Positions 15,442 to 53,711 of a DNA stretch of 64,000 nucleotides are shown one piece after another. Made by a program: the position numbers and the translations under genes. The DNA is taken from positions 283,161 to 347,160 of the forward strand of contig NMRA01000415.1 of NCBI GenBank assembly GCA_002633005.1, written 5' to 3'. The notes below the pieces were generated by a model, which did not search any database, had not been told where the DNA came from, and was given only the letters and a program-made list of their open reading frames with translations. Position 1 is the stretch's first letter. Each line of letters opens with the position of its first letter. This DNA comes from Phoronis australis. Lineage: Eukaryota > Animalia > Phoronida.

Positions 15442-15944
15442 TGGTATCCTAGATTCGCCACTGAGTAACCCTTTGAAGCCCGGCTGGGAGATAATTGGTC
15501 TGCTTGTAGCCATACGGGACAAGCGACTGTGCTGGGCAGTTAACAAAGGAGCCAGGTGTTATCGCACGCTCGGCTGAACGACAGAACGCCGTCTTGAGTG
15601 ACATAGCTCATTCATCTGGCACTGTAGTGACGATTTCTACCGCCAGGATGGAAGGACATCAACCACTAGAGGTCTCTGTCTTACCGGATGTTCACTTCAC
15701 GCTTGTCAAGTTTTCGAGCAGGCCTATTATTGTTTGAGGTAGGCCCAGTCCACGAGTACGAGGTAAGAAGAGAATCTGGTTATACTAGTACGGCACTTAA
15801 CTAAAGTTGTAAGTCGAGGGCATGCTGTAATATAGGTAAGACGTATCTTTGGTGTACGCACCTGTTCATTGAATGACCACTCATCTGGCCCAGGTCTCTA
15901 CGTCTACGACTAGTTGTTCATACGTTGTATCTCCTATAGGAAAG

Positions 15945-16415
15945 TCATACGCCGGAAGCTTTTCGGCGAATTATGCCTCACACTTACTAAAACATCAAAG
16001 TCACTTTGGTATAGGATGAGTGCCTTTTGTGCCTAGAGTAACACCTTAACAAGCCGTCAATCTCTGTAATTCCTCCCATCTCGAACAAATATTCCAGATT
16101 TCAAGCTTTTTCTTTGAGAAGTCCCTCTTTCTGTTCCCAAAATTGGTTACTAGCTGTTTTTACACTGCGCATGCCAGGGAATATGACGTCATACCACCCT
16201 TCCGCAGGCAGTGTTAAAAGTGACGAATGTCCGATTTTGGGAACTGAATGAAGGACTGCTCATAGAAAAACTTTGAACATGGGAATATTTATTTGAGTGG
16301 GGGGGGATTACAGACGGCCTTCTAAGGTGTCACTTTAGGTGCATAAGGCATTTATAACAGCGTGACTTTTTAGTCAGTAGGAGGCCTAATTCGCGGAAAA
16401 GCTTCTGGTGTATGA
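15945..16415. mobile_element. Long-hairpin MITE (~470 bp, arms ~200 bp) upstream of the POLR1H start codon
   Basis: The left arm tcatacgccggaagcttttt...gttcccaaaattgg is the imperfect reverse complement of the right arm ccgattttgggaac...aaaagcttctggtgtatga. Confidence 0.7.
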
Positions 16416-16720
16416 AGGTCTAATATGAGGTACATCTGCTACTTACATGTATATTGTCATTATATGTTGTTTAAATTTCTAACTAATATGGCCAAGCAAA
16501 TGCAGAGATAAGGAATTAGCGTGCAAGTTCCACTGTTGGAAGATCTGATGTGACAACAATGCAGTCCTCTTCTGAAGGGCCTAGAAATCATGTCTAATCT
16601 CAGTCAGGAAATTGTTTAGGGGGGTGTTTTTTAATACGAAGTTAGTGTTCTAGATATAAAAAATGTTTTTCATTGAAGGTAGTCTGATATCAGCTTTAAG
16701 CAATTTTGTTTTTGTGCAGC

Positions 16721-24519: not shown

Positions 24520-24790
24520 AAGCTCATCATAACAACGCAAGTGCCGTTTTCACGAGACATGTCATTGACTGTACGCTCTGGTGACCAAACTGAGTGAAGG
24601 AAATTACGTTACATCTGCATGTAATAATGTTCAGTGATGCTGGCTTACGTAATGCATGAGGTAAGCCACAAGGAATACATTAGGAAACCATCAAGGCGTT
24701 TTTTAGAATTGCACTTTGTTTTTTCAGATTGTGGTCTTATGACTTTGATGATCTTGAATGGAACTATTGCACTGGGGTTGCGGTATAGCG
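24520..24790 (+). pseudogene. Decayed copy of an intron plus TM exon of the TIR-TMEM268-like gene
   Basis: Aligns by eye to ~41230-41390 and ~41860-41975, including the acceptor ttttcag. A 1-nt deletion (ttatgac vs ttaatgac) frameshifts the exon. Confidence 0.65.
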
Positions 24791-25905
24791 TAGTGTCTAA
24801 GCTTGCGAAAATGTAAAATCACGCACACATCGTTACCTGATATCGACATGCATTGTACTGTAAGCGAAGCACGTGACCACACTAGCGTTTTGAGATTGCC
24901 TTGGGTCTACGGGACGCACCCCCGGTACCGAGTCTTCTTCCAAAGCCGGCCCAGAAGTCACTTGAATGTATAATTTAAATAAGAAACAGTTTGAGGCCAA
25001 TTTTAGAACTGTTTATGGTTAATGCTTTAACTCGTAAGTCGAACATTTGACGAATAAGCGGATTCATAGCAGCTTTGAAGCTGTTACAAACTCGTTTAGT
25101 AACTGCAAAACTGAATACGTATCGCTATAGAACTCTTACTATGCACTACTAATTTTAATGCAATAAAATTGATTGTGGATTATAATGATCGTTTATGCGT
25201 TTATGCCATACCCGTGCTATAAATTAAAACTGCTGTTTACAAACTACGCCAGACCTAGTCTTCTGAGCACAGTAGAACCAGTGCGTGAGAACCCAGCGAC
25301 GTCAGTTGGTTTCAGAATGTTGTTCATCAGTACCATGTACATGTGTATGTTACGCGGAGTATCAACTCTGTGGAGAATATCTCGTCCTACTGCAAATGAC
25401 CTCTGTAGTAGTAGTTTTTCTTCCGCCCGAATCGGGGATGACATGTCTAAAAGGCAAGTGACTGGGCGTAAAAAGATATGTTTTCATTTTTGTACTCATA
25501 CCAGGGAGGGGGGACTGAGAAAAGAGTAAATCCCCGTCGGAAGAGTTGTTGATGTGCCAGTTAAGCTTAGAGACACCCTAATTCAAAACCTGTTCAGTGA
25601 GCTGCTGGTAAGATGTGAATTGTAATCGAAGCCTTAGTGAATCACTCAGAAACTCGCAATACTCTCTTTGTCAAACCTTATCTTAAGACGATTTCCAAAG
25701 CAATCCCGTCATTATAACCAACACGAAAAATGGATTTGGTCTTTTGGGCATTTGAAGACTATTTCAAATACGACAAATTTGTTAAGAATTGATGGCACAA
25801 AATATAAAACGTGTAATAAGCATTACAAAAAGAAGTACTTTTCGCGCGCAAACGCTGTGGCCCATAAACAAGTAGGTCTTTTAGTAGGAGATTAGTAGTT
25901 AAATC

Positions 25906-26237: not shown

Positions 26238-29200
26238 TTAGCATAGCAGTGGGGTAATTTCATCATCGTCGTCGGTTTCATGCCTTTCTTCATTGGTCTC
26301 GTGTTGAGATGTCCTTTGCATCGTACTATAAGACAACGGATTAGTGGCATCACTCGCAAGGTTTTTAACCAAAGTTTGCTCATTGTCAGTCCAGGTGTCG
26401 TTGTTTTTTGTTTTATCGTGGCTTGCGTGTACAGGAGACCCGAGGATCGCACTTGAACCGCTGTTTCGGGCGCCTGTTTCTGACAGAGACGATATGTCTG
26501 TTGTCAAAGAGGAATCCACTGATTCCTGTCCTATCTGAAACAGACATTTAAATGTACATAAACCCGTAGCATGTTTCTTTGGAAGCTATCTCAAATTGAT
26601 CTTTACTCAGATTACCATTGACTTGGAAAGAATTGACCGTTCGTTACTGCTTCAGGCCTGGTTTAACGGGACATTTCCTCTTCATACTGACAACTCAACA
26701 TACAAGTTATCAATAAGCTTAGGTCCCCAACCAAATTTTTGTACTCAAACTTCGTTTGGACAACGTGCTCGAGATGATGACGTATTACGCCAAATAACTG
26801 TTTTGTCCTGCCGTAGCTTTATTTTGGGGTCATCAAATGCTTGGACAAGACTCTCATGTACAGAAGCCATTCTAATGCCAAGTAAAAGTACCAAAGCACT
26901 TATCCCGAGTTCAACCTATCACGCTAAATTCTACCTCTTGTTTGGAAGTACTACATGTATAACGCAGAGCTATACAAGATCTATCTCAATTTTTCCCACA
27001 CCAACAGGATGCCATGATGATTTTCCGGATATCGTTGCGAGATTGAACCAGCGAGTCTGTATCCAATCACCGGCGATATCTCAATTCATTCTGACGGTAC
27101 ACACCTGTTGCTAGGAAACGGTGATGGCAAGTTTGAGGCCAGTTCGTCGGAGTAACTCAACTTTGTCTAGATTTCCCAGTTGATGCCTAAGCAAGGGGAA
27201 ATTGTCCTGAAGCTTGTTTCGTGGAAGTGACTTAAGACTTGAGATAGAAATTTGGTCTTGCGCTTCCATTGAATTTCCAAAAACGAATTAAGCCAAGAAA
27301 TTGTGAGTGCATCTTTGTCTAGATATGATATGTAGAAATTATCTTATTGACTACCAGTGTTGTTCATATTCGCAGAGACTTTGCTTTTTTGCTCAAGTAA
27401 GATTCGATTACATTTCTGAAATATTAGAGTGGAGCGTAAGTCCAAATTTCTGACCTAATAAACCGCTTTCCATGAAGCAGACCCATGGCTTTCAGAAGAA
27501 AAAATTGCCAATCAATTTAGTTCAATATTTCCCTAGTGCGATGTTTTCAATGTCAAAATGCCATGCAATGTCCAACTACGATTTCTTTAGTGAAAGCAAC
27601 TTCACACTACCTGAAATTCCTGGTTCTTGGTGACAGGTGTCAGCACAGTCCTGCTAGGATGATACTTGCGAGACAACGTGTGCTTCAGCAATAGACCTCC
27701 GAATACTAAGACCAGCCACAATGTCGAATAAGCAAGTAAAAGTATCAAAGAGGTACTACTGCATTCCAATCCCGTCATAGGTCCAAAAGTAAACCCGAGG
27801 GCGTTCACTACTGTACCCCAAGGACAGTGTTTGGAGCACGTGTTCTTGGTGAGTAAAAACAGATCTGCTGGGCACTTAGAGACGCATATTCGCCAAGAGT
27901 CGTTCCGGACCAAGTTCGCTTTTGAATCACACGAGGAACAGTCATCAACGCACNTCTTTATACTGACAACCCAACATACAATAAGCTTAGGTCCCCAACC
28001 AAATTTTTGTACTCAAAGTTCGTACGGACAACGTGCTCGAGATGATGACATATTACGCCAAATAACTGTTTTGTCCTGCTATAGCTTTATTTTGGGGTCA
28101 TCAAATGCTTGGATAAGACTCTCATGTACAGAAGCCATTCTAATGCCAAGTAAAAGTACCAAAGCACTTATCTCGAGTTCAACATATCACGCTAAATTCT
28201 AGCTCTTGTTTGCAAGTACGATAACGCAGAGCTATATACAAGACCTATCTCAATTTTTTCCCACACCAACAGGATGCCATGATTTTCCGGATATCGTTGC
28301 GAGATTGAACCAGCGAGTCTGTATCCAATCACCGGCGATATCTCAATTCATTCTGACGGTACACACCTGTTGCTAGGAAACGGTGATGGCACGGTTGAGG
28401 CCAGTTTGTTGGAGTAACTTAACTTTGTCAAGATTTCCCAGTTGATGCCTAAGCAAGGGGAAATTATCCTGAAGCTTGTTTCGTGGACGTGACTTAAGAC
28501 TTGAGATAGAAATTTGGTCTTGCGCTCCCATTGAATTTCCAAAAACGAATTAAGCCAAGAAATTGTGAGTGCATCTTTGTCTAGATATGATATGTAGAAA
28601 TTATCTTATTGACTACCAGTGTTGTTCATATTCGCAGAGACTTTGCTTTTTTGCTCAAGTAAGATTCGATTACATTTCTGAAATATTAGAGTGGAGCGTA
28701 AGTCCAAATTTCTGACCTAATAAACCGCTTTCCATGAAGCAGACCCATGGCTTTCAGAAGAAAAAATTGCCAATCAATTTAGTTCAATATTTCCCTAGTG
28801 CGATGTTTTCAATGTCAAAATGCCATGCAATGTCCAACTACGATTTCTTTAGTGAAAGCAACTTCACACTACCTGAAATTCCTGGTTGTTGGTGACAGGT
28901 GTCAGCACAGTCCTGCTAGGATGATACTTGCGAGACAACGTGTGCTTCAGCAATAGACCTCCGAATACTAAGACCAGCCACAATGTCGAATAAGCAAGTA
29001 AAAGTATCAAAGAGGTACTACTGCATTCCAATCCCGTCATGGGTCCAAAAGTAAACCCGAGGGCGTTCACTACTGTACCCCAAGGACAGTGTTTGGAGCA
29101 CGTGTTCTTGGTGAGTAAAAACAGATCTGCTGGGCACTTAGAGACGCATATTCGCCAAGAGTCGTTCTGGACCAAGTTCGCTTTCGAATCACACGAGGAA

Positions 29201-29757
29201 CAGTCATCAACGCACTTAGTAATGGATCGGATATCCAGCAAAGGGTGACACAAATACATGCTAGTTGGACACTTGGCCACGCATACACCTTTGTAGACCA
29301 GTGGCACGTTGTCAGGACAATCAGCAACGCACATTTTTTTGAGGCCGTCGACAAGTTCAAGTGTTTTAAAAATGCTACAGTTGGAGCAACTAGTTAAACA
29401 CTGCACGGGCAATAAGGGCCGTTCCTCACACTGGAAAGTGGTAGCTGGACACCCGGACTGATAGCACGTGGAATCTTTTTGGTATTTGTAAGTGCAGGAA
29501 TCCACTATAGGCCTACCTGGACAACAAGAATCCTTGCATACAAAACTTCTTTCATTATGAACTTTTGTGTTAGGACACCTTTTATAGCAGTTTCCGTCAT
29601 ACTGAAATGGCGCTACAGCTGGACACGTGGTCACACACTTCTTGTTGACTGGATCAAAAAGTTCCTGTGATGTACAAGTAGTACACTCACAGTCCTTGTC
29701 CGTGTTATCTGGTGTCTGCAATCCTCCTCCGCAGTTGCAGGATTTTGCGGCTACAGC
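26238..29757 (-). CDS. Cys-rich furin-like-repeat (PCSK5/VSP-like) single-pass membrane protein, 5' exon(s) not identified
   Basis: Exon 28873-29757 encodes AVAAKSCNCGGG..., repeated CVxxCP / CxxCP units, and the TM segment LILLLAYSTLWLVLVFGGLLL followed by basic residues. It joins in phase 0 to exon 26238-26534, a Ser/acidic tail ending DDDDEITPLLC*. Confidence 0.75.
26679..29213. repeat. Tandem duplicate pair 26679-27953 / 27955-29213 joined at N 27954, including a partial copy (27611-27953) of the Cys-rich/TM exon
   Basis: Near-identical sequence either side of a single N. ORFs 27602-27913 and 28864-29721 share their C-terminal ~100 aa. Confidence 0.85.
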
Positions 29758-33200: not shown

Positions 33201-36200
33201 AAATAAATTGCCAGTTTGCGGCAGTATTCGAACTTCAGGAAATAAATGCTCTGGCCCACCGGGACAGTTAGTTTGAAAATTAACTGGGCCGGCTGCCAAG
33301 TTGCTGGCTTAGTGGCCACAAATCCTCTGGTTCCGGGCCGCCGGGCCAGCGTGTATTGCAAACGCTGGTTCGCGGTTCAACGGACAATGCGTGTTGGTCA
33401 GTCTTTCAACAAAGCGGTTTTTCCACAATAAAGCAGCTGCTAGTGTATGGAATGAAATTTATTTGAAACCTTGCAAACTTTACTGTATTCAGTGCGCGTA
33501 TTTGAAACCGGTTTTTCGTTGAATTATGGTTAGACGCGAACTTTTAAAAATAAGCAAAGAGGTGGTAAATAATACATGGTTTGATTGATTCGTTCAAATT
33601 TTCCTTTTCAGATTCTTTTGTTTAAAGTGTACCTTGTGGACAGTAACTACCAACGTAGACATCACGCGACCAGGCCAGCGCATATTCGAGAACGTGATTT
33701 TCTGAAATAGAACCCTTCCATCTGATACAGGCCGAAGAGTAGAGAATTACGGTCACGCTAGTGCATCTAGTAGACTGACTTTTTGAATCCTCGCCCATAC
33801 TGACTTCTTGCGAGTTAATTCATAGACTGTAAAATGACAGATTACTTCGAGTACGACTTGTTCTTCTCTCACAGCTCTAGAAATATCTGTGACGTAAAGC
33901 AGTTGATAACGAGGCTCGGCCAAAGCCCGTACAACATCCGCTGTGCTTGTGCCGATGATGATTTCGTGCCTGGATGGACTGTAACGAAAAACATTGAACA
34001 TTTCATACTCAGAAGCCGAAAAACCGTGGCCTTAATAACCCCTGACTTCACCAATAGCCGCTGGTGCGACTACGAAACTTCCGTTTTGCATACCTTGGAC
34101 ATGGAAGAAAACAGGAATCGACTTATACCTGTTCTGTTCAAGGACTGTGACTTGCCACTTATGGCTAGGGTGACAAGCTACATTGACGCTAGACTAATGG
34201 GCGTGGAGGAGCTTTCTTCTCAACTGTTTAAAGCTTTGAATACAGGTAACATGCACGTTTACACCTTCAACTATTATACATTGTACTGTAGATTCCGTAA
34301 CTGGCAACGGAAAACCAAAGACAGTATAGCGTCGTGTTTAAAACAAGTTGACGTCTTCTTATACATGTGCTGTTTTTTCACCTAAATAAAGCAATGAAGG
34401 CCTATTTAAGAAAAACTGAACATTTTTCGAAAGTGTTAGAAAGAACTTCATAAAAGACAAATGGGCTTTCAAACATATTTGTAAGCCGTAGAAATAACTA
34501 ATAATTGTTTCAAGTGAATAGTAAATGCAAGTTGATTCTTAAGTAGTTTGGAAATCAAGCGAACCTTAAGAGTCAACTAACTCTTCCTAATTACTGTATT
34601 TTATTAAGGTCAAACACATACTGTGTAATCTGGTCCCTATACAGGTAATACCGTGACTCATTTGAGACCTGCGCTCACCTGGCACAGCCCGCACAGTTTC
34701 AGTGAATGTCTCGCGCGCAGTGTTTTGATAAGCTGTACAAAGGCACCGATATGCCGTAAAATGTAACAATTTCGTAAAATGTGACAACTGTTACAATTTA
34801 CGTCATTGTTACATTCTACGTTGCTAAGCCTCTCCTAAAATGTAACAAGTTGTTGCGTTTTACGAAGCTGTTAGTACATTTCATGTCGAATGCACATGCG
34901 AGAAATGTACCTTTGCTGCATTTTACGCAACCATCGTCATATTGCAAAGAAAATGACCAAAATCACGAACAAATGATATCTGACACGGTCGGTTTTAGGC
35001 GAGGGGTGCCGCCCGAAAAATATGAATACTTGCCCGTTTCGAAAATGGGCTGGGACAAAAAACTCGGGGGATCATTCTCCAAAATTCACTCGGGCTCTAG
35101 ATAACGGGGGATAACGACTTCGCCATGTAATAATCTATATTATTTATTTTTTTGTAGATGATCTTTCGTCCGTTACTCTGAATGTCAAGAAAGAAATTGG
35201 TAAGCTCTGCAAATCACAAACTCCAATTTGCAAACACGCAGAAACGTTACCGGAACGGAACTCCGGGTTGCAAGTGTATGGATTCAGAATCCACGAGAGA
35301 GGACTTGGTAGTGGCAGGTTTAGGAAACATTCTAATATGATTCTGAGAAGAATTTGGAACAGCAGAGTTTTACCNGCCCCCCTGCCCCCCCCTAAATCCG
35401 CCTATGTTAAATGACAGTATACTCACGTGTACTCGCTAATAACACATGTATTCATACAGCAGCCTGATGAACGCTCAATGTGTTTAAACTGAAAATCTCA
35501 AAATTCAGGTGGTAGACGTTTAGCCGGGTACAGGTGTTTAAAGCGAAGTTTTCAATAAGGCGGGGTCATTGACCGTTACCCAAACTGCCAATTTGTGTTA
35601 ACCACCAGGTAGTTGCTTGAATGTAAGCCACTTCACATCCTTACTTCAAAATTTGAGGATCACCTTGAGCTCACAAAATATTCGATTTTCACCGCGACGA
35701 TTCTTTGTGAGTTCGCCTTTCTCGCAACAAATTTGATTTACGTGTACAGAACGCAACCCCAAACAGGTATTCGTTTAAATACTTTAACACCTGTTATAAA
35801 GTCAGATGGTCCAAAAAATCTCGACCGAACTCCTTTGAACTGGAACTGTTTGAAACAAGTTCTACCATAGTGAGTCATTATATAGAAAGAACATTCAGTG
35901 CAGTCCAACTTGAGAAGTACGTGTACACCCATTCTTAACATAGCGGTCGTTTCTGGTGTGCCCATTTGTGGAGGGGTCGCGGTTAAAAGAAAACTAAGGG
36001 ACAAAATGAAAAAAAAAACGACTCCTGATAGCTGCCCACTTGGAAAAGGCTTTTCATAAATGATCAACAGACTCTCCAAAATGTTCAACCGAAATGAGTA
36101 ATTTTCCATATGGCGTACGAAAAGTGGTAATTTTTCGTATTTCTTTTATAGTTATCGGGAGAGAGGGCAACCGTATGTCCAATGTAGTTCGCTTATCACG

Positions 36201-39149
36201 AGATTTAAAACAAAAAACATTCATACATGCGACATTTGATTTCCTCAACAACTTAACATCTGGTCACTGCTCCTTCAGAAGTCCTAGTTCAACACGTACA
36301 TATATAGAGCGACGTCAGGCCATAAGTTTAACAACGGCACTCCGTTGATGGGTGGCAAGTGGGCATATGACGACTAGCCACCGCTGACGTGATTCTTGCT
36401 ACAGCTACACGTACAACACACGTCGATCTGCCCCGAATAACCGAATATTTTTCTTATCAAATATTTGCGACCATACAGCCCCGCAATTAATTTCCGTCGA
36501 CCGAGTGCTGTTGTATTTTGTTTGCTCGCTTGAGGTCAAGTTTCCTGGTGCTTATCAACCTATACATCGAGAATTCCTTATTCCGAGAAAAGACAATCTA
36601 GTCACTGTGTGTGTGCATTATCAGCAAACTGTGGATCAGAATATCCGTTGACGAGATAATTACTGTGCTCGCCAGTGAAACGGTGGTAATTAAAAACCAC
36701 CTTTTTCGTAAGCTGGAGCGTAACTAGCGTTGAAAGTTTCATTTCAAGCAGAAAGATAACGGTATGTAAGACCTGGGTTGTGCAAATTCTAAGAAACTAT
36801 CGCTTATTACCACTTTTCAATGAATTCAGTTCAAACAACGGGGTGGAAGACAAGGCTTCCTAGAAATACATGTATTGACACGTCAAATATAGTGTCTCGA
36901 TCATCCGACAAAGCGGATAACACGTTGAAATTAAGTACTTGTAAATCCAAGACACATTTATCATTCGCTCAATGTTACGGTGTAAGAAACGGGAGAAATG
37001 TGAACGACTACTATCCAATATGGCCGTCCGTCACTGAGGCACTCCCGGAGCAACTCAAATCACGGCTGGGAGTAACGTACTCACACACTCCTATATCTGC
37101 TCCTCTGGTCCCGGGCCGCTGGGCCAGCGTGTATTGCGAACGCTGGTTCGCCCTTCAATGGACAATGCGTGTTGGTCAGTCTTTCAACAAAGCGGTTTTT
37201 CCACGATAAAGCAGCTGCTACTGTACTGTATGGAATGAAATATGTTTGAAACCTTGCAAACTTTACTGCATTCACTGCGCTTATTTGAAACCGGTTTTTC
37301 GTTGAATTATGCTTAAACGTAAACTTTTAAAAATAAGAGGTGGTAAATAATACAAGGTTTGATTGATTTGTTCAAATTTTCCTTTTCAGATTCTTTTGTT
37401 TAAAGTGGACCTTGTGGACAGTAACTACCAACGTAGACAACACGCGACCAGGCCAGCGCATATTCGAGAACGTGATTTTCTGAAATAGAACCCTTCCATC
37501 TGATACAGGCCGAGGAGTAGAGAATTACATGTATGGCCACGCTAGTGCATCTAGTAGACTGACTTTTTGAATCCTCGCCCATACTGACTTCTTGCGAGCT
37601 AATTCACAGGCTTTAAAAATGACAGATTACTTCGAGTACGACTTGTTCTTCTCTCACAGCTCTAGAAATATCTGTGACGTAAGGCAGTTGATAACGAGGC
37701 TGGGCCAAAGCCCGTACAACATCCGCTGTGCTTGTGCCGATGATGATTTCGTGCCTGGATGGACTGTTACGAAAAACATTGAACATTTCATACACAGAAG
37801 CCGAAAAACCGTGGCCTTAATAACCCCTGACTTCACCAATAGCCGCTGGTGCGACTACGAAACTTCCGTTTTGCATACCTTGGACATGGAAGAAAACAGG
37901 AATCGACTTATACCCGTTCTGTTCAAGGAGTGTGACTTGCCACTTATGGCTAGGGTGACAAGCTACATTGACGCTAGACTAATGGACGTGGAGGAGCTTT
38001 CTTCTCAACTGTTTAAAGCTTTGAATGCAGGTACATACATGCACGTTTACACCTTCAAATATCATACTGTAGATTCCGTAACTGGCAAGGGAAAACCAAA
38101 GACACGATAGCGTGGTGTTTAAAACAAGTTGACGTCTTCTTATACATGTGCTGTTCTTTCACCTAAATAAAGCAATGAAGGCCTATTTAAGAAAAACTGA
38201 AATTTTTCGAAAGTGTTATAAAGAACATCACAAAAGACAAATGGGCTTTCAAGTATATTTGTAAGCCGTAGAAATAACTAATAATTGTTTCAAGTGAATA
38301 GTAAATGCAAGTTGATTCTTAAGTAGTTTCGAAAATCAAGCGAACCTTAAGTGTCAGCTAACTCTTCCTAATTAATGTATTTTATTAAGGTCAAAAACAT
38401 ACTGTGTAATCTGGTCCCTACATTTATACCGCCACTCATCTGAGACCTGCGCTCACTTGGCACAGCCCGCACAGTTTCAGTGAATGTCTCGCGCAGTATT
38501 TTGAAAAGCTGTACAAAGGCACTGATACGTCGTAAAATGTAACAATTTCGTATAATGTGACAACTGTTACAATTTACGTCATTGTTACATTCTACGTTGC
38601 TAAGCCTCTCCTAAAATGTAACAAGTTGTTGCGTTTTACTAAGTTGTTAGTAAATTTCACGTCGAATGCACATGCGAGAAATGTACCTTTGCTGCATTTT
38701 ACGCAACCAACGTCATATTGCAAAGAAAATGACCAAAATCACGAACGAATGAAATCTGACACGGTCGGTTTTGGGCGAGGGGTGCCGCCCGAAAAATATG
38801 AATACTTGCCCGTTTCGAGAATGGGCTGGGACAAAAAACTCGGGCGATCATTCTCCAAAATCCACTCGGGCTCTAGATAACGGGTGATAACGACTTCGTC
38901 ATGTAATAATCTATATTATTTATTTTTTTGTAGATGATCTTTCGTCCGTTACTCTGAATGTCAAGAAAGAAATCGGTAAGCTCTGCAAATCACAAACTCC
39001 AATTTGCAAACACGCAAAAACGTTACCGGAACGGAACTCCGGGTTGCAAGTGTATGGATTCAGAATCCACGAGAGAGGACTTGGTAGTGGCAGGTTTAGG
39101 AAACATTCTAATATGATTCTGAGAAGAATTTGGAACAGCAGAGTTTTAC
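30247..39149. repeat. Tandem duplicate pair 30247-35373 / 35406-39149 joined at N 35375
   Basis: Colinear high-identity copies. Copy A has extra blocks (~31085-32200, ~32930-33320). Copy B starts next to a MITE end. Confidence 0.85.
33834..35199 (+). CDS. TIR-domain exon plus 42-nt exon, copy A (duplicate or allele of 37619-38975)
   Basis: Exon 33834-34245 (YDLFFSHS, DFVPG, SRKTVALITPDFTNSRWCDYE, RLIPVLF) and exon 35158-35199. Further exons are absent from this copy because it ends at the N join. Confidence 0.8.
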
Positions 39150-42100
39150 GACACAAATTATAGTGTGCAAGCTATACACTTACGTCACGTATATTTAAAT
39201 AACCCCCCTTTCTGCACATTATCTATCGCATTGAACCCCAGTGGTGTCCCCAGTCTCCAAAAAGACCAGGCAGCTACGACTGATGGCCTGACTAGCAAAT
39301 GCCATCTTTGTATTAAGCCAACGCTTATAAAATAGCTTTAGTTTCAGGTATTCAATGTTTTGCCAATTGTGCTTACCAAATCAATTATTTGGAAAATTTC
39401 ACACACGCACCTGTGGGAGTCACAGCTGTGTTCATGCCTGACTTTACTACTGTTGCTTACTGTCTCCGCACTAGCAAGCATTCTATGATGTCTATAAATT
39501 TTAGTGAATGGAACCGTGTACGAAATCTTCGCCCGGAAGTGCAGCACTATGGGATTTGTCTTTAGCGACCTAACAAAACTTGAACTGATGGACCTGCAAT
39601 ACATGAAAATCAAGGTATTATAAAATTGATATCATGTTATTCCCATAGATAAAGCAAGGTGTTTTTTCGGTCACAGCTTCTGTGAACTAAACTGAAGCTC
39701 TGTAACACATAAAGATGGCCGGAGAAATTACTGACTGAAAAGTCCTGCCAATTGCTGGAGGTTGGTGTATAAAGGAACGCGTTTGTAAAAAAGAAAAAAA
39801 CGTGTAAAATGCAAAAGCCTGTGGCGTCTGGGTAAGAGTTGGTCGTCTCTGAACATTGGTTGGGATTAGGTATATGCATATTCAAACCACGAGAGATTTT
39901 TTTGATCTACGATTTCTTGCTGCCTGACCTTCGAGCAGGGTCAAACAATGAATGACCCCGATAGAAGGTCAAGTAGCGCGTCACGTAGTAGGTAGGTTGC
40001 GAATCTTTTAGCCTCTAAGATTCAGGTGTTGGCAGCTCCACCAGCTTCGTGTCAATGTCAATTTCCCACTAACAAGAAGTAACGAATGAGCAAGAAATGG
40101 ACGAATGGGTCATGCAACGACATGGATTTCTCTAAAACCTCCTTGACCCCCACACTCATCGACCCCTTCGAACCACGACACCCTCGACCCGAAACGCCTC
40201 GACCCAAGGCTGGGTTCGGCTCCGTCAGGTTATCGATTCACCTTCAGTTTCGCTATAAAACCGGCACAACTAGCAGTAGACACGTTTCAAACGCACCATA
40301 AACAAGGCGTATATAACTGAACCAGGAACAACGCAACTTGACATGATGACCTGGGATGTCTCAACAGAGAAACTATGCTAGAAATAATGATTCTTTGAAA
40401 ACAAAAGTGATCTCATTTAGCACTCGATTACATCTAAAATGTTAGGATTAACCAATAGTTTGAAAACAACATCGTAGAGCTTGAATAAAAACAAACACAC
40501 TTTTGACCGTGGAAGGTATCTTTACTGCTGGAACAATTTCAGTTAGAGATTTCAATTTCGCGTTGTCTGTTCACAACTGTGAAAGAAATCTGGCCCACGG
40601 TCTTTCTTGCCTTCTTGAACACAATTGATGCTCCCATTCAACTCACAGGTTGGTATTTTCAGGACCCAAAGTACGTGTATTTTGTGTTGGCGCAAGAGCT
40701 GAACAAATCCTCCTTAGTTAAACATCATCTGATGTTCACTGGTTCTTGTGCGAGCTGTTTCTGGACCTGGTACCTCAGTATTATCTTCTATCTCGGAGTT
40801 GTAAGTAAGCCTGTCATTGTTTGTTGCGTCCTCAGACTCGTCTCATCATATAACTGTGGCGCAAGATACGCCGTGTGAATGGAAGAAAGCACACTATCTT
40901 ACTATCCCAGTGCTATTAACTTAGCGATCCCTACCACTGTAAAGCGACTGAAATATACTCGGACTGTTGCAACATGTTCGAAAACTGTACGTAGACAACC
41001 ACAAATCCAATATTTCTGTTGTCTCAGCCAACAGATTGTCGCTGCTGTACGGTGGTCACGCAAATGATAACGTCTCAGAGATGATTCACTTGATTCCATT
41101 GAAGTAATCTACATGGTACATGTATGTCCGTACCAAAACGCACACACGCATAACAGACCTCACCTTGCACAAAAAAGAATGTGGATGATGTGAGATTTGG
41201 TGACATTTCTGTCTTCTCCCACTGAACTCAAAACTCACCATGACGTCAATGCGCATGCCGTTTTCACGAGAAATGCTATTGACTGTGCGATCTGGATACC
41301 AAACTGAGAGGAGGGAATTAATTAACCCGCAGCATTAAGGTTTTGATATTAGTGTATTAATGATGGTGCTGGCCTCCGTATTAAAGGAGTTTAAAGCCTA
41401 CCTTCAATGGAATATTTTATTTAAGATGTATTGGGCTAACCAGATCGTCCTAGCAAAGCCTTAGTAAAATAAGAAATGCGAGCTCCATCGCTCAAATGTA
41501 GGCCCGTCAAATGACAGGTGAAGCTGCCTTTTCCTGCCATGTTGCGTCATCGCGAGATGCCAGCACAAACAACAAAATGCCGATAACAGTTGTATTGAAA
41601 AAGAGTTTGAATAGAAAGCCACTGCGTGAGAGTGTTAATTATTCGCTGCTGTTTGAATTAAAAGGTAATTCTAGCGGTGACGTAGACACAAAGGTGATTC
41701 TAGCGGTGACGTAACCAAAAGCATGCCAATACGCTTAAGTGTTCGTTACGTTTTACAATTTATGACAATTTTGAGTTGGCTCAGAGCGATACTATTAAAT
41801 TATTGTAGGAACCGAATTTACAGGTGTTACTGCTGCAGATAGGCTTTAACCACAAAATATTTTTAGGAAACCATGAATGTGTTTGTTGGAATTGTACTTT
41901 TTTCAGACTGTCATCTTAATGACCCTGATGATCTTGAGTAGCACTATTGCACAGGGGCTACAGAGTAGTATGGTGTCAATCTACCCATTGGCGACGACAG
42001 ACACGAGTATTCTGGTGCTTTTCATCATTCGTTTTTATCTAAAAACGGTGGGTTTCTTCTGTGTCTTAACCGCCTCACCTCTACCATCTATGCAATTACC

Positions 42101-45100
42101 ACTCTCCCCTGCAACGCCATACTTAACATCATCGCTACCAGAGTCAGCACCACGAACAACACTACGACTCTCAACATGAACTAGCACGCAATAATTCCGC
42201 GACAGCTAATTTCATTAACTCTATCAGTTCCGTCTCTGTGACAGACACATCCCGCCTTATTGCCCTACCACCACCATTATCATTGTCACATCACCATCAC
42301 CTCCTCTATTCTCACGTGACCACTTCCACAACAACAACAACAACAACAACACCAAAAACAACAACATAATCAGCACTGCCCCTATAAGTCATGTCACAGT
42401 ATCACATCCATTAACACTATAGCCAAGCAACTCTATTCTTCTGTTTCCTCACAACACCTCCAGATGAAGTACTTATTATTGCTGATTTATTTTAAGTTTG
42501 GAACTGGTTATGTATTGAAATCCCTGTCGCAGAGTGGTGTGCGTTCTCAATTATGAATACAGCTATGGCGAAGTCATTGCAAAACGGTATTTTTATTAGC
42601 TGTGTACTCAGAAAGAACACGGTGAACAAGGAAATTACATCCAAGTTTTATTATGTTAGGCATTCTCAGCAGGGGACGACTAGTTTGTGAGCACTATGTA
42701 TTCGAGTAATATTACTTCAGATGCAACGAGCGTTAACAACGTTCCCATTTACATGTACATGTATTTGACATCTGTAACCACGCTTAGGAAGTGCGGAAGT
42801 GCCTTCTTAGCCTTGCAGCGTAGAATTCGTTGTTATTATCACAAGACTCTGCTTCTTCTTTTTCAGAAGTTGAAATCGCCAAAATCGAAACAGCTCCAGT
42901 CTTTCCTTCTCGACCTTAACATTGAACTGAGCCAGAACCACTGCACTTTGGCGGATTTTGTGGTGGACAAAGATCCGTCCTTCGTACCTGCCGTATCCTT
43001 TTAGCACATCTGTATTTACATTTCACTCGCCCATACACCGTTCAAGAGGTCTCATTCACGTGCATTATAGGCGTTTTGTTGGACGACATCTGCCATCATT
43101 TTTATTACTTGACACGAAAGGTCTGCACTCACGTTCCTATTCATTCAAAATGACCCACTCCTTTCTTCAATTTTGTAATACGGCGTGGCAACAAGTCATC
43201 CGAAAACAAAAAGAATACTTTCATCAAAGAGACAGTAAAATTCATTGGTGCTTCTTTACTAGTCGACTTCAAGTCGTTTTTGTGTTATAGTGAGAAATTT
43301 AGTGATAAGTATACGCCCGAAGCGTATCACCTTGTGGGTCTACCTTTCATTGCACCTCGATTTAGGGTATGCAGACACTGCACTGAAAAAGTTGTGCACT
43401 GCGTTTACATGTACATGCGTCCAAATCCCACTATACCACCGTTTAACCTTCTGCACTAGTTACACGTAGTATTCTCGAGGTTTGTTTTCTGCGCACAAAA
43501 GTGAACCACGCGACTTGAGGTTGATATTAAAAGATGAAATGGAAAACATTGTCCAGTTTATGTAAGTTATTTGTTCCTTTGTAAAAGAATATACTGAAAA
43601 CAACAGTTCACAAGGACATCGTTGAATTTATTTACTTTTTTCTGAAAAAAGTGACGTTTTGGTCTACTTTTTAATGCATTTTTTATGTATCGTTGAGCGA
43701 GGCATGCTGTTGGCACCGTGACGTCAGTTTTGCACATGCACAGCATGCAATGCCTCACAAAATTCAATGGTTTTGACGAGAATGCACGAGATCATTGTCC
43801 GTGTCGACAATCATAAAAATTTTGAATCTTAAGAATAGGAATTCTTTGAAAAACAATGATTCCTCAAAGCAAAAATGCAACACGGCTTAGTCGTTTTGTA
43901 AGTCCCACGTGGGCTTTACGACACACGGTCAAGAAATATTGAGTGAACTTATCACATGCCAAGAGCCAAACCAATCACAGAAGCCAAGTCCGTTACACAA
44001 AATACTCGTGAGACACTATTGAGAATTAGTGTTTTGCCTCTGATTTGTTACGATATGGTTTAAAAACTTGCATGATTCTCGCATAAACTAGTTTTATGCA
44101 ACGCAGCCCACGTTATCACAAGCGTTACACTTGATTAAGGCAGATAGTCAGTGCCACTCAGTGTTGCCGTAGATACATTATGGTCATTTGATATTGCTTC
44201 ATGAACGTGTTCTTTTGAGTCGCGTAGAGTGAAAATCACCGCATTGACGTATTTTCCTGACAAGAAATCACCAGCTTCGTTTATTGTATTACGACATGAC
44301 GCAATGCCGAGTGAGTATAGTCACTGAATTTTAAAGTAAAGTGTGGAACTTCTCAATCAAAACAAAGACAACATATTTGAAACTCCTACATTTTGTGCAT
44401 TATCCTACAGGAGGCGCCACTCTTCTAAATTATCTGTTTCAGTTTCCGGTTAGTGTATTGTGATGACACAACATCCGACCATAATTACAGTGGCGGATCT
44501 AGGACATCACAAGGGGGGGGCCCAACATTTTGTCCGGTTGGAAGCTTTTGCGCAAACTGAACCACGAATGTAGATGCGCATAGCACCGGATGGGGGCAGG
44601 TCGGGAGGGGGGTTTGCCCCCCTCCCGCCCGGGAAATTTTTCTGTTTTTACCTCTAAAAATCAAGCATTTTCCTTGATTCCTGAAGTATTATCCAAGAAA
44701 AAAAGGCAAAAAAAAAGAAAACACGGAGAACGTGTCAAACAGGAAAAAAATGCACGTACCAAAGAATCGAACTCACGACCTGGCGCATAGAGCGCGCGTA
44801 CGTTACCACTACACCACCACAATTTAACTATAATTTTCATACTAAAAGACTTACTTGTTTATGGGCCACAGCGTTTGCGCGCGAAACCTACTTCTTTTTG
44901 TACTGCTTACTACACGTTTTATATTTNAGTGGTGTGCGTTCTCAATTATGAATACAGATATGGCGAAGTCATTGCAAAACGGTATTTTTATTAGCTGTGT
45001 ACTCAGAAAGAACATGGTGAACAAGGAAATTACATCCAAGTTTTATTATGTTAGGCACTCTCAGCAGGGGACGACTAGTTTTTGAGCACTGTGTATTCGA

Positions 45101-48100
45101 GTAATATTACTTCAGATGCAACGAGCGTTAACAACGTTCCCAGTTATTTGACATCTGTATCCACGCTTAGGAAGTGAGGAAGTGCCTTCTTAGCCTTGCG
45201 GCGTAGAATTTGTTGTTATTATCACAAGACACTGCTCCTTGGTTAATTTTCAGAAGTTGAAATCGCCAAAATCGAAACAGCTCCAGTCTTTCCTTCTCGA
45301 CCGTAACATTGAACTGAGCCAGAACCACTGCACTTTGGCGGATTTTGTGGTGGACAAAGATCAGTCCTTCGTACCTGCCGTATCCTTTTAGCAACATCTT
45401 TATTTACATTTCACTCGCCCATACAGCGTTCAAGAGGTCTCATTCACGTGCATTATTGGTGTTTTGTTGGACGATATCTGCCATCATTTTTATTACTTGA
45501 CACGAAACGTCTGCACTCACGCTCCTATTCATTCAAAATGACCCACTCCTTTCTTCAATTTTGTAATACGGCGTGGCAACAAGTCATCCGAAAACGAAAA
45601 GAAAAGTTTCATCAATGAGACAGTAAAATTCATTGGTGCTTCTTTACAAGTCAACTTAAAGTCGTTTTTGTGTTATAGTGAGAAATTTAGTGATAAGTAT
45701 ACGCCCGAAGCGTATCACCTTGTGGGTCTACCTTTCAGTGCACCTCGATTTAGGGTATGCAGACACTGCTCTGAAAAAGTTGTGCACTGCGTTTACATGT
45801 ACAGTTGTACATGCGTCCAAATCCCACTACACCACCGTTTAACCTTCTGCACTAGTTACATGTAGTATTCTCGAGGTTTGTTTTCTGCGCACAAAAGTGA
45901 ACCACGCGACTTGAGGTTGATATTAAAAGATGAAATGGAAAACATTGTCCAGTTTATGTAAGTTATTTGTTCCTTTGTAAAAAATATACTGAAAAAACAG
46001 TTCACAAGGACATCGTTGAATTTCTTTACTTTTTTCTGAAAAAAAGTGACGTTTTGGTCTACTTTTTAATGCATTTTTTATGTATCGTTGAGCGAGGCAT
46101 GCTGTTGGCACCGTGACGTCAGTTTTGCACATGCACAGCAAGCAATGCCTCACAAAATTCAATGGTTGTGACGAGAATGCACGGGATCATTGTCCGTGTC
46201 GACAGTCATAAAAATGTTGAATCTTAAGAATAGGAATTCTTTGAAAAACAAAGATTCCTCAAAGCAAAAATGCAACTCGACTAAGTCGTTTTATAAGTCC
46301 CACGTGGGCTTTACGACACACGTTCAAGAAATATTGAGAGAAGTCATCACATGCCAAGAGCCAAACCATTCACAGAAGCCAAGTCCATTACACAAAATAC
46401 TCGTGAGACACTATTGAGAATTAGTGTTTTGCCTCTGATTTATTACGATATGGTTTAAAAACTTGCAAGACTCTCGCATGAACTAGTTTTATGCAACGCA
46501 ACCCACGTTATCACAAGCGTTACACTTGATTAAAGCAGATAGTCAGTGCCACTCACTGTTGCCGTAGATACATTATGGTCATTTGATATTGCTTCATGAA
46601 CGTGTTCTTTTGAGTCACGTAGAGTGAAAATCACCGCCATGACGTATTTTCCTGACAAGAAATCACCAGCTTCGTTTATTGTATTACGACATGACGCAAT
46701 GCCGAGTGAGTATAGTCACTGAATTTTAAAGTAAAGTGTGGAACTTCTCAATCAAAACAAAGACAATATATTTGCAACTTCTACATTTTTTGTGCACTAT
46801 CCTAGAGGAGGCGCCACTCTTCTAAATTATCTGTTTCAGTTTCCGGTTAGTGTATTGTGATGACACAACATCCGACCATAATTATCAGAGGACGCCGGAA
46901 ATAAAACAAAATAATTTTGTCAGGTATTGCTAGTGAATTAATTGTTTCTGTAAGAAAACAGATTTCGTCCATTGAATGTGTACGGAGTTGGCGGTCCATG
47001 TACTATAGCGAATGGTCAAATTTGAAGTTGTATTAGGAGGATGATTTTTAATTATCTGGTATAAGTACACTGTACACAAGAATTTGTACCGTATTTTGTC
47101 TTTTAAAACATCTTCTGCATTCTTGATAAGCACACAGACCATTATTTTGGCTCACCTGTAAACTATCAAGGGCGGTAGCTTCACTTTTACAGTTACATGT
47201 AGACACCTGCATTGCCATTCTTGAAAATCCTGGTTCATGTGTTGGGCAGGATATTCTTTGTTTTTGTTCTTAAATACGACTAGCTATCGTTTCTACATGC
47301 ATTTATATCTGCTCTACATGGGACAGGAATTTTTCATATTTTTGTATAGGCCTAGATCTTTCAATTCATGGTCTTAGACACATGTTACACGCCGGTGACG
47401 GGGTGACTACATGGCAGAAGGACAACGGTAGATTGTTCACAATAGTACCATAGAAGGAGGACCAGGCGTCTTTGCTCTATTCTGGCTCATCATTGGACAT
47501 ACAAATGACGTCGCGAAGAGTTGTCTTCCAAATAATTACAAGGAAATTTTTGTTGGTGTCCAATAGGTAATGGCCACGCATTTATGACCTCATTAACAGA
47601 CGATCAACTTATGTGACTTTCTAAGTACGGATGTCAATGCAATGAGGAACTTTACTGTATTTTCGGCTTGCACGTGGCCGACTGCACGACGGAGGCTCAA
47701 ACGAAACCTTTAGTTGCCTCCTTCGAATAAGATTAGGAACAACAACAATACAATGGTTAAACTTCTTTGCAACGTAAATGTACATTCTGCGAAAACGAGG
47801 CAAATATCCACAGCAATTAGGTGCGAATGCACAATTTGTAAGTCTAAACTTAGTATCCCGTTTTTCTGTTTTTTAAGGGCCCTCTTGAAAAGCAGTGCTA
47901 TCACTGAAGAAGCCACTCTCATTTTTAATATCACAATAAATAAATAAATTAAGTCCTCGTCCTACGCACCCTGAAAAATTCGAGCTCTTCATATTTTAGT
48001 CTGGATGTGCATGGAAGTTTAAACCACACATCGCTGTCTACGCTTTAAACTAAGTATGTTGCAATGTGACTGTGTTTTATGAAAGCCACTTTGTCTTGAT

Positions 48101-49830
48101 TTTTCCACTGGTGGCACAGATAACAACTGGCGGTCATTCAAAACAACATATCAATCACACATGCGCGTTCATGTTTCAGGAGTGCTTAAAAGACTGGGGA
48201 CTGTGGTGCGATGAAATTTCCAACAAACACGTAAGTCTGTGAATATGTGAGAAATTCTTTCTCAAAGCTTTGTGCTAGTCTGAATGAATTAAAACTTTAT
48301 TTGTCTTGCTATGAAGACCGGCTTCAAGTGATACTATGAACTCTTTTACAGGTCTAAATATATGCACTTTCAAATATGCCAAATATAGAGCACTGTACAT
48401 GTAGCCTGGAACCGTGGCGAGTAAGAGCTGATATGGTTATGTTGGACCTCATCCAAGAACCTGTGCATTTATTCCAATGCTTACTTGTACAAGCCTTTAC
48501 AACTGATCTCGGTAAAAGTGTATACTTTCTGAAAGCGCAAAGGACATGCATGTATGTGCTCTGGAATTTTAATAAAAGCTAAGATGAAAGATACAATCAC
48601 ATCAAAATAACGGCAGCCATCACGTGACCAATTTTCGTTTGATACATATCTTCACCATGAAATCTCATAAACGCTGTCACAGTTTTCTAAATTAGCATTT
48701 TGTTCTCATCGTTTTTACATCTTTTGTTTTTTTCATGAAAATCTCGCGTTAAAACGAAACATAATAAAACAATTTGTTACATGATTTTGGAGTATAGTTC
48801 TACTAAAAGCATAATATCTAAAATTTTGTATCAATTTGATCAACCGTTTCAGAGATATGATGTCCCAGAAATAGCAAAATTTGGACATTTTTCCTAAATA
48901 ACGTTAATTCGCCTTTTTCAGAAACTAAATTACTTCTTCTGACGGACACAAAGTTTCAGCATAAAAAGCAATGCAGAAGATAATATATAAAATAAAAATC
49001 GTGTTCAAGTATAATAGCCACTATATGGAAACACGATTATTTCTTACTTGCCACCTGTAATAGGCCTACGATTGGCTCTTGAGGTGGGAAGGTAGACATT
49101 GGGAGATATGTGTTACGCTGCGTAGCGCAGTTGTTGGTTACACGTACCATTTGCCGTTGGCTTTCAACATTTCCACCCCGTTTGCCAACGATAGTTACAC
49201 AGAGCTTAATTGACAATTTCCTTGTCACCAATTATCTTTGTCATCGTTGTCTTTATTTTTGACGTCTTGGCAACGAATTTTCTTGTTTTGTTAATGTTCT
49301 ATCTAGAGGTATTTTTGCGAAAGTTAATGAGGGAATGAAACATTTTTGTTCCCGAAGCTAACTTAAACTTCCGAAATGGCTGCCGCCATTGCAGCCGTCA
49401 CACACACCGAGCTACAGTTTGTACAGGTGTACATGTACGAACGTTTACAAACAGCCGAGTTCCCGTAATAAAGGCCGTGAGAAAATCAACCAACGTGATT
49501 GTATTCTCTTAGAATCATTTTTTGCAAAACACATGTTGAACAGTATTGACTATTCTATACAACAATAACTCGTCATCTGAACTGAGTGACTATTTTTAGT
49601 GCAGAAAACAATGCTCTGTGAAGACTTACCTCACGTCTTACGTCGAACTGCTCCAGGCAGAAGAATCGAAGAAGTCCCAATTCCAAGTTGATAATGACCT
49701 TGTTCGTCACGTGACCAAAGACCGCTTGATGTGTTTCTGCCAATACGTAGAGCACATGCGCAAACGGGAAGGTTTGCCAACATGTGACAGAGGTAACCAA
49801 GAACAAAGGGGGTTAAGTTACGTTATGTAA
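37619..49830 (+). CDS. TIR domain fused to a two-TM TMEM268/DUF4481-like module (multi-exon model, 3' middle exons unresolved)
   Basis: Phase-consistent exons: 37619-38030 (TIR); 38934-38975; 39505-39614 (VNGTVYEIFARKCSTMGFVFSDLTKLELMDLQYMKIK); 40663-40800 (DPKYVYFVLAQELNKSSLVKHHLMF...WTWYLSIIFYLGV); 41907-42047 (TVILMTLMIL...SILVLFIIRFYLKT); 42867-42992, duplicated from 45254 (KLKSPKSKQLQSFLLDLNIELSQNHC). Candidate exons at 48180-48230 and ~48352-48420. Last exon ~49600-49830 (YLTSYVELL...RHVTKDRLMCFCQYVEH). Confidence 0.6.
42328..42366. repeat. (CAA)n microsatellite
   Basis: caacaacaacaacaacaacaacac...caacaac. Confidence 0.85.
42533..46884. repeat. Tandem duplicate pair 42533-44487 / 44928-46884 joined at N 44927
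   Basis: Colinear ~1.95-kb copies. Copy A is followed by a transposon arm at ...ccataatta|CAGTGG; copy B continues ...ccataatta|tcagagg without it. Confidence 0.85.
44488..44926. mobile_element. Arm of the same long-TIR element as 23461-26211, truncated at the N
   Basis: CAGTGGCGGATCTAGGACATCACAAGGGG... is the reverse complement of ~25800-26211, including the tRNA-like segment. Confidence 0.8.
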
Positions 49831-53364: not shown

Positions 53365-53711
53365 GCCTCCCGTTCAGTAACGCTAGGACCTCGCTAAAAA
53401 GCAAGACTTCCCGAGATTACGTGAGATATTGCCATGTATTTTAAATGAGAACACATGGCTAGTATTTGTGATGTAACTGACCTTGATCAAATTCTAGATC
53501 AGGCGTGCGTTCAGTAGACGCTAAGACCTACATGTACGCTAGGACCTACATGTAGCTAGAACCTAGTCAAAATCACGTGTTCTCATTTAAAACACACGGC
53601 AATATGCCATGTAATCTCGCGAAGTCTTTCTTTTTAGCGAGGCCCTAGCGTTACTGAACGGGAGGCAGATCTAGATTTTGATCAAGCTCAGTTACAGCAC
53701 AAATACTAGCC
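53365..53711. mobile_element. Interleaved inverted-repeat MITE complex
   Basis: Pair 1 is 53365-53455 / 53575-53666. Pair 2 is 53457-53500 / 53668-53711. Relatives of arm 1 occur at ~11609-11680 and ~13902-14015. Confidence 0.65.

Follow-up and report, generated by a model that had tools for sequence, protein, structure and literature searches.

A probable TIR-DUF4481 membrane protein gene in Phoronis australis and its relatives in other animals

Introduction

In the phoronid Phoronis australis, a 64,000-nucleotide stretch of contig NMRA01000415.1 (positions 283,161 to 347,160; here called the window) carries, on its forward strand between 37619 and 49830, a candidate nine-exon gene whose product would open with a TIR domain and continue into a two-transmembrane (TM) module of the TMEM268/DUF4481 type. 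The locus is probably a real and functional member of a conserved, unstudied family that combines these two domains and is found in annelids, molluscs, hemichordates and amphioxus. An N-terminal TIR with a TMEM268/DUF4481-like two-TM module had been proposed from the letters of the sequence (the original prediction), and this architecture holds: the spliced model scores 37.8 bits against a profile of other species, and related proteins pass the Pfam DUF4481 cut-off. The second module had been recognized but under-called. It corresponds to a complete DUF4481 domain, for which a GOLGA7-like fold is predicted and a C/H/C/C metal site is likely, and the gene is one of a wide family and no isolated case.

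Results

The exon chain

The window reads as intron-bearing, AT-rich animal DNA, its GC content being about 0.38-0.44. Exon 1 (37619..38030) contains the ATG at 37619 and the TIR (residues 1-137) with its BB-loop DFVPG and the WCxxE glutamate E81. It had been claimed to end in a phase-1 donor and to run on past the stop displayed by the open-reading-frame track, and a GT is indeed present at 38030/38031; read through this donor, the frame stops at 38110. Sixteen codons ahead of the ATG the frame has a stop, although a further coding exon upstream, not seen here, could be joined through an acceptor at 37610. Exon 2 (38934..38975, 42 nt) encodes a linker; its AG/GT signals and phase fit, its duplicate copy translates identically, and it ranks 35 of 83 candidates by profile. 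Exon 3 (39505..39614; rank 7 of 68) would begin the DUF4481/GOLGA7-like module with its opening strands and helix; it supplies N153 in an NG motif and L182, both common to 12 of 14 homologues. Exon 4 (40663..40800), picked out also by hydropathy, provides the helix preceding the membrane and the start of TM1, and exon 5 (41907..42047) the remainder of TM1, the loop and TM2; they rank first of 89 and first of 90 candidates.

Exon 6 (42867..42983) is in frame and encodes FLLDLNIELSQNH, with a basic juxtamembrane helix, the LDLNIELSQNH helix and a strand; its donor is less certain and it ranks 15 of 153. Exon 7 (44275..44310, 36 nt) was located by the family profile and adds the last strand and a YYDxxxC motif with the invariant C331. 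It ranks first of 271 AG..GT candidates, tied with its own duplicate. Exon 8 (48180..48230, 51 nt) is likely and encodes a variable helix, with good splice signals and phase and a rank of 28 of 95. Exon 9 (49600..49830) encodes the Y363 helix and the RH...CFCQYVE motif (H386, C394 and C396) and ends at the stop codon 49828-49830, or alternatively at a phase-1 donor at 49793 leading to an unseen exon. Read to the stop, the nine exons give 425 residues free of internal stops. For exons 2, 3, 6 and 8 the evidence is mostly their splice signals and phase together with local motifs, and exon 8 is the least sure.

The acceptors named in the original prediction (38934, 39505, 40663, 41907 and 42867) are all AG, and the phases chain stop-free. 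Its two hydrophobic segments fall at residues 226-244 (mean hydropathy 2.53) and 257-275 (1.70), separated by a loop of about 12 residues. The exons that it listed are present in the sequence, but the set was incomplete, with exon 7 and the probable exon 8 missed.

Scoring against a profile of other species

A profile was built from 14 aligned other-species proteins using only the part after the TIR. Among 3404 six-frame segments of the window, the best match is the exon 9 frame (49600-49827, E 3.8e-4), the distal RH...CFCQYVE exon already noticed in the original prediction; the second and third are the 44275-44310 exon and its duplicate. The post-TIR product of all nine exons reaches 37.8 bits (E 8e-14 as a single sequence), against a maximum of 9.4 bits for shuffled controls (294 of 300 shuffles reported). 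Leaving out a single exon reduces the score to 21.2 bits (exon 5), 15.9 (exon 7), 26.7 (exon 8) or 25.1 (exon 9). Exon 8 thus adds 11 bits, yet other candidates in its place outscore it. The direct join of exon 6 to the exon at 49600, as first predicted, is rejected, this chain scoring 18.4 bits. Only C331, H386, C394 and C396 are common to the post-TIR parts of all 14 homologues.

The TIR domain

Exon 1 matches Pfam TIR_2 (PF13676; E 2.3e-15, 57.6 bits, cut-off 28) and TIR (PF01582; E 1.9e-10, 41.3 bits, cut-off 21.3). The domain begins at about residue 5, so that the protein opens directly with it. By sequence profile the family TIR is nearest to Toll-like receptors (TLR15, TLR2, TLR1 and TLR6), Hydra TRR-2, the oyster TIR-STING protein and MyD88. 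In a full-length model of the homologue P0006 (predicted local distance difference test, pLDDT, 75), for which fold searches were filled by TIR matches, Hydra TRR-2, MyD88, TIR-STING and MAL match at Z 18.5-16.6 and SARM1 at 14.1. All 21 sequences checked retain the WCxxE-type glutamate in helix alphaC. A quick TIR tree did not group the family as one supported clade. No death domain was found in the model or in the 21 members scanned, and no leucine-rich repeat (LRR) or immunoglobulin (Ig) family in any member scanned. Identity as a TLR is rejected, given the missing ectodomain, the N-terminal TIR and the two TM segments after it.

The DUF4481 module

The post-TIR part of the homologue P0092 was modelled with a pLDDT of 88.3 and a predicted template-modelling score of 0.83. 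The model opens with strands and one helix, continues into a long helical hairpin and, after a beta-hairpin, closes with three helices; the helical hairpin recurs in the P0006 model. A GOLGA7-like fold had been recorded as the expectation from the sequence pattern ahead of the fold search. Compared with 48,161 chains, the P0092 model has a single match at Z>=8, namely GCP16/GOLGA7 from the ZDHHC9 complex (8hf3_B, Z 9.2), the next row being at 6.5. The alignment covers 120 of 124 target residues and model positions 5-175 at 14% identity, with a root-mean-square deviation (rmsd) of 4.3. By alignment this range corresponds to about residues 153-326 of the window model, and the C/H/C/C cap comes after it. 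The match to GCP16 is moderate in strength, but in the model it spans the whole target domain.

The DUF4481 module is thus predicted, from the homologue model, to be a GOLGA7/GCP16-like alpha/beta core with an inserted TM hairpin, followed by a small metal-binding cap. In the predicted topology a two-helix membrane hairpin leaves both ends of the protein cytosolic. To judge by their invariance, C331, H386, C394 and C396 likely form a zinc-type metal site; a homodimer predicted with zinc and run without an alignment scored 0.01 and counts neither for nor against such a site. Pfam Erf4 matched no member of alignment A2 at E<=1, and the RDYS motif of GOLGA7 is in none of 21 sequences (two RDY matches both lie in N-terminal extensions).

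The family in other animals

A phmmer search with exon 1 returned 3131 proteins at E<=0.001. Among the best 150 of these, 10 have a C-terminal RH...CxCQ or CxCQ[YF] motif like that of exon 9. The post-TIR profile matches 25 of 153 proteins collected, of which 14 are its own seeds and some others are isoforms or near copies. The architecture recurs in other animals. The sources of the 20 members looked up include annelids (three from Owenia, one from Paralvinella), molluscs (three Haliotis species, Gigantopelta, Pinctada with two, Mytilus and Liolophura), the hemichordates Saccoglossus and Glandiceps, the amphioxus Branchiostoma and one goby. Their database names read 'uncharacterized', 'hypothetical', 'TIR domain-containing' or 'TLR2'. 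Three Branchiostoma lanceolatum proteins (P0046, P0115 and P0154) are named 'TLR2' yet have a TIR and DUF4481 without LRRs. The goby protein P0104 (Mugilogobius chulae) has a TIR and an H...CFCQ motif and matches the profile at E 2.9e-4, in an odd two-TIR model without a TM segment. On this weak fish match, the family may reach vertebrates.

Pfam DUF4481 (PF14800) occurs together with a TIR in P0046, P0050, P0055, P0090, P0115, P0135, P0153 and P0154, at 25.4-61.8 bits (cut-off 25), and at E<=1 in 11 of 21 family rows. The post-TIR part of P0046 has DUF4481/TMEM268 as its top three Atlas clusters (0.81-0.84), which serve as leads only. PF14800 gave no match to the window's own exons scanned one by one. 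Of the domain check suggested with the original prediction, the TIR part was positive directly, and the DUF4481 part was negative for single exons; at the level of sequence, the window's link to DUF4481 is transitive and runs through the family profile. Word-index searches for homologues with exons 1 and 9 found none (85 and 8 candidates), and the same kind of search with family alignment A1 brought back nothing beyond two proteins already in that alignment; these three negatives are weak. An Atlas search with exon 9 gave no usable match.

Duplicated exons and assembly joins

Two parts of the gene are present twice, which the original prediction had not mentioned. A second copy of exons 1-2 (33834..35198, forward strand) ends at a single-N join at 35375, its TIR exon being 98.1% identical in DNA. 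A second copy of exons 6-7 (45254..46705, forward strand) follows a single-N join at 44927, and the two copies of exon 6 are 98.3% identical. Overall the blocks are 94-95% identical, and each adjoins its join. They are probably allelic assembly overlaps, because every one of the window's five single Ns borders a duplicated block or repeat copy; for the same reason two real tandem paralogues are improbable. A comparison of the copies shows 11 differences over 607 exon sites and 135 over 3367 flank sites (p 0.007); indels number 0 in the exons and 18 in the flanks.

The single-N joins lie at 23584, 27954, 35375, 44927 and 50949, and four are flanked by duplicates of 86-99% identity, such as 26679-27953 and 27955-29215. 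Duplicate blocks at such joins are likely overlaps between haplotypes, which lead to an overcount of gene copies in the assembly. Elsewhere, about 100-130 bp at 24660-24800 are about 80% like the acceptor and first half of exon 5, with a one-base frameshift and no other exon near. This stretch is a decayed paralogue fragment or a shared repeat.

RNA evidence

Three RNA runs from the same species were used, with about a fifth of each read and with coverage dominated by repeats. Depth over the gene is very low, and among the joints listed, which in a first pass were all but ten, none of the junctions proposed in the original prediction, nor any other GT-AG exon-exon joint of the gene, reached the 3-read threshold in the three runs. 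All seven joints listed in a second pass lie inside repeats. In run X3 (first mate on the reverse strand) the bins of exons 1, 3, 4, 5 (41942-42363) and 9 have depths of 1.77, 0.12, 0.71, 0.68 and 1.42. Repeat-free intron bins have zero depth, as does exon 6 in its first copy. With depth in exon bins but no joint at three reads, the runs give a weak indication of expression and do not show the splicing, which is modelled from the DNA.

Over exon 4, at 40560-40800, runs X1 and X2 have reads with the first mate on the forward strand, opposite to the gene's other exons, and with shared variants, possibly from an antisense transcript or a repeat. Intronic repeat elements at 41417-41850, 44487-44926 and 46820-47008 have heavy, sharp-ended coverage by RNA from elsewhere.

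Other features of the window

On the reverse strand, a 297-codon open frame at 28867-29757 has cysteine-rich repeats and a hydrophobic end segment; it is partly duplicated at 27605-28012 and has no Pfam match at E<=0.01. Several open frames between 1397 and 9468, also on the reverse strand, resemble exons of a coiled-coil protein, with no Pfam match in the three scanned. Self-complementary stretches of 300-500 bp at 15926-16434 and 53365-53666 are 70-74% identical to their own reverse complements and are possibly like miniature inverted-repeat transposable elements.

Discussion

Points against the model and the question of a broken gene

Besides the missing exon-exon joints, several observations weigh against a functional TIR-DUF4481 protein with a GOLGA7-like core. 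The arginine of the family's RDF BB-loop motif is an aspartate in this gene, and its TIR sits on a long unplaced branch (1.62) in the quick tree. Five entries of the family (P0104, P0087, P0115, P0146 and P0029) have no TM segment; their gene models may be poor, or they may really be soluble. The Z of 9.2 for GCP16 lies below the value of about 13 that the tool advises for helical folds, the rmsd is 4.3, and Foldseek with the post-TIR model found nothing at E<=0.001 in the PDB and a viral library. The proteins folded were the homologues P0006 and P0092 and not the window's own spliced product. Finally, 7 of the 11 coding differences between the copies alter the residue, so the constraint is only modest.

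A rival reading is that the chain is wrong or dead: either a pseudogene, or a short TIR-only gene next to a TMEM268-like gene that is separate or has decayed. The lack of junction reads at very low depth, the readability of exon 1 to the stop at 38110, the profile ranks of exons 2, 3, 6 and 8, none of them first, and the frameshifted look-alike of the start of exon 5 near 24.7 kb all speak for this. They are countered by nine stop-free exons in family order, by the same fusion annotated in many genomes, and by the better conservation of exons than flanks between copies. The same-strand X3 depth over exons 1, 3, 4, 5 and 9, absent from repeat-free introns, points the same way, although exon 6 in its first copy has zero depth too. 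A wrong or dead chain is quite improbable.

What the protein may do

The protein may be a TIR scaffold or adaptor tethered to the membrane, with a second module that takes hold of another membrane protein and controls the stability or traffic of TIR-bearing immune receptors, a reading by analogy that we hold with a little less than even confidence. The TIR would dock on TIR assemblies of the TLR, MyD88 or MAL type. The module would clamp the cytosolic face of a receptor, as GOLGA7 does with zDHHC enzymes and TMEM268 with integrins, and the clamped receptor would have its stability or trafficking set and hence its signalling strength. CHIC2 is presumably another member of the GOLGA7/Erf4 fold family. 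A grip on a partner is suggested because human TMEM268, in two reports, binds ITGB4 and CD11b and shields both from degradation (PMC6748091, PMC11169502), and because GCP16 is described as an accessory subunit of DHHC9 that clamps the enzyme (bioRxiv 10.1101/2022.12.12.520165). CHIC2 and CHIP regulate the turnover of cytokine receptors (bioRxiv 10.1101/2023.07.17.549407), in passages that name neither Erf4 nor GOLGA7. Animal TIRs of the scaffold-type clade act mainly as scaffolds, according to another preprint (bioRxiv 10.64898/2026.04.30.722052).

Three other functions can be set against a receptor-gripping scaffold, and they divide over what the TIR and the module are for. If the TIR were an enzyme, the hairpin and metal cap could sense a membrane or redox cue, cluster TIRs and lead to cleavage of NAD+ or production of a signal of the ADP-ribose type. 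The glutamate kept in every sequence, the N-terminal TIR as in TIR-STING (6wt6/6wt7 among the top matches) and the membrane anchor that reportedly restrains the amoeba NAD+ hydrolase TirC would suit such an effector. The nearest solved TIRs are of scaffold types, however, and TLR TIRs also carry this glutamate. The original prediction was right to caution that the residue does not imply activity: the amoeba proteins TirB and TirD reportedly keep it without processing NAD+. Such an enzyme seems unlikely. If instead the module were mainly an anchor, the protein could supply the signalling half of a split receptor, paired with another protein that carries the ectodomain, or could be a sorting adaptor like TIRAP or TRAM, and would recruit MyD88 positively. 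This suits the lack of an ectodomain, the short loop between the TM segments and the best TIR fold match, Hydra TRR-2, which has been proposed to form one half of a bipartite TLR (PMC6321704). This gene retains the BB-loop proline, which is replaced in several family members, and a mere anchor needs no conserved folded cytosolic domain with four invariant ligands; we would not expect this role either.

The fold match itself invites a third possibility, in which the GOLGA7-like module binds a zDHHC palmitoyltransferase as an accessory subunit, much as GCP16 serves DHHC9 in the preprint cited above (bioRxiv 10.1101/2022.12.12.520165), and the TIR delivers TLR or MyD88 for S-acylation. The match to GCP16 over nearly its whole length and the cysteines C217 and C220 just before TM1 are in favour. 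Against it, the RDYS motif, which GOLGA7 is stated to require for zDHHC binding (PMC12528901), is in none of the 21 sequences, and the partners given for TMEM268 in the two reports cited above are integrins. A palmitoylation subunit is accordingly improbable.

More broadly, and tentatively, the family could be a bilaterian-wide class of membrane TIR proteins in which a metal-capped hairpin of the GOLGA7/Erf4 fold links TIR signalling to how immune receptors are lipidated or turned over, or else gates an enzymatic TIR. If true, TMEM268 would be a hidden GOLGA7-fold protein with a role in innate immunity tied to an ancient pathway around TIR proteins, which fish may have kept.

Significance and earlier descriptions

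Many invertebrate TIR proteins have unknown roles, and the TIR-DUF4481 architecture is conserved across annelids, molluscs, hemichordates and amphioxus. The family is hidden under labels such as 'uncharacterized' or 'TLR2', and TLR counts in those animals may therefore wrongly include members. By Rosetta-stone logic, the fusion suggests that the DUF4481 module works with TIR signalling, and the immune phenotype reported for mouse Tmem268 agrees with such a role. The GOLGA7-like fold, as predicted, and the C/H/C/C site offer a structural handle on human TMEM268, with none earlier in the literature searched.

That literature contained neither a TIR-DUF4481 fusion nor the fold link, the main survey of invertebrate TIRs (Gerdol et al. 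2017) lying outside its coverage. The terms 'TIR domain' and 'transmembrane protein 268' never occurred together, and none of the TMEM268 titles listed concerned invertebrate TIRs. Gerdol et al. 2017, the amphioxus TIRA/TIRC work or supplements may already list the architecture under another name. For some members TIR and DUF4481 can be displayed in domain databases, so the combination is findable but, as far as searched, undescribed. The architecture is a new combination of known parts, and a side result, that DUF4481 likely has a GOLGA7-like fold, is the greater surprise.

Comparison with known systems

Human TMEM268, also named C9orf91, shares the two-TM hairpin inside the DUF4481 domain (PF14800), for which homologues of this gene pass the Pfam cut-off. 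TMEM268 is 342-343 residues long with DUF4481 at 38-328 and leaves no room for a TIR. GOLGA7/GCP16 and yeast Erf4 share the predicted alpha/beta core (P0092 model, 120 of 124 residues, Z 9.2); in contrast to GOLGA7/GCP16, the TIR-DUF4481 family has a full TM hairpin, an extra C/H/C/C cap and a TIR, and it differs in the absence of RDYS and in an identity of 14%.

TLRs, MyD88, MAL/TIRAP and Hydra TRR-2 have a TIR of the same scaffold type, whereas in this gene the TIR is N-terminal, before a two-TM hairpin, with neither LRR/Ig ectodomain nor death domain. The oyster TIR-STING protein (6wt6/6wt7) likewise fuses an N-terminal TIR of similar type to a C-terminal module, which there is STING and here is DUF4481 and predicted to span the membrane. 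Gerdol et al. 2017 reportedly defines the ecTIR-DC classes, one of which may equal the TIR-DUF4481 family. Like this family, the ecTIR-DC families and amphioxus bbtTIRA/TIRC are conserved invertebrate non-TLR TIR proteins, and in secondary accounts they are proposed or shown to be adaptors or negative regulators.

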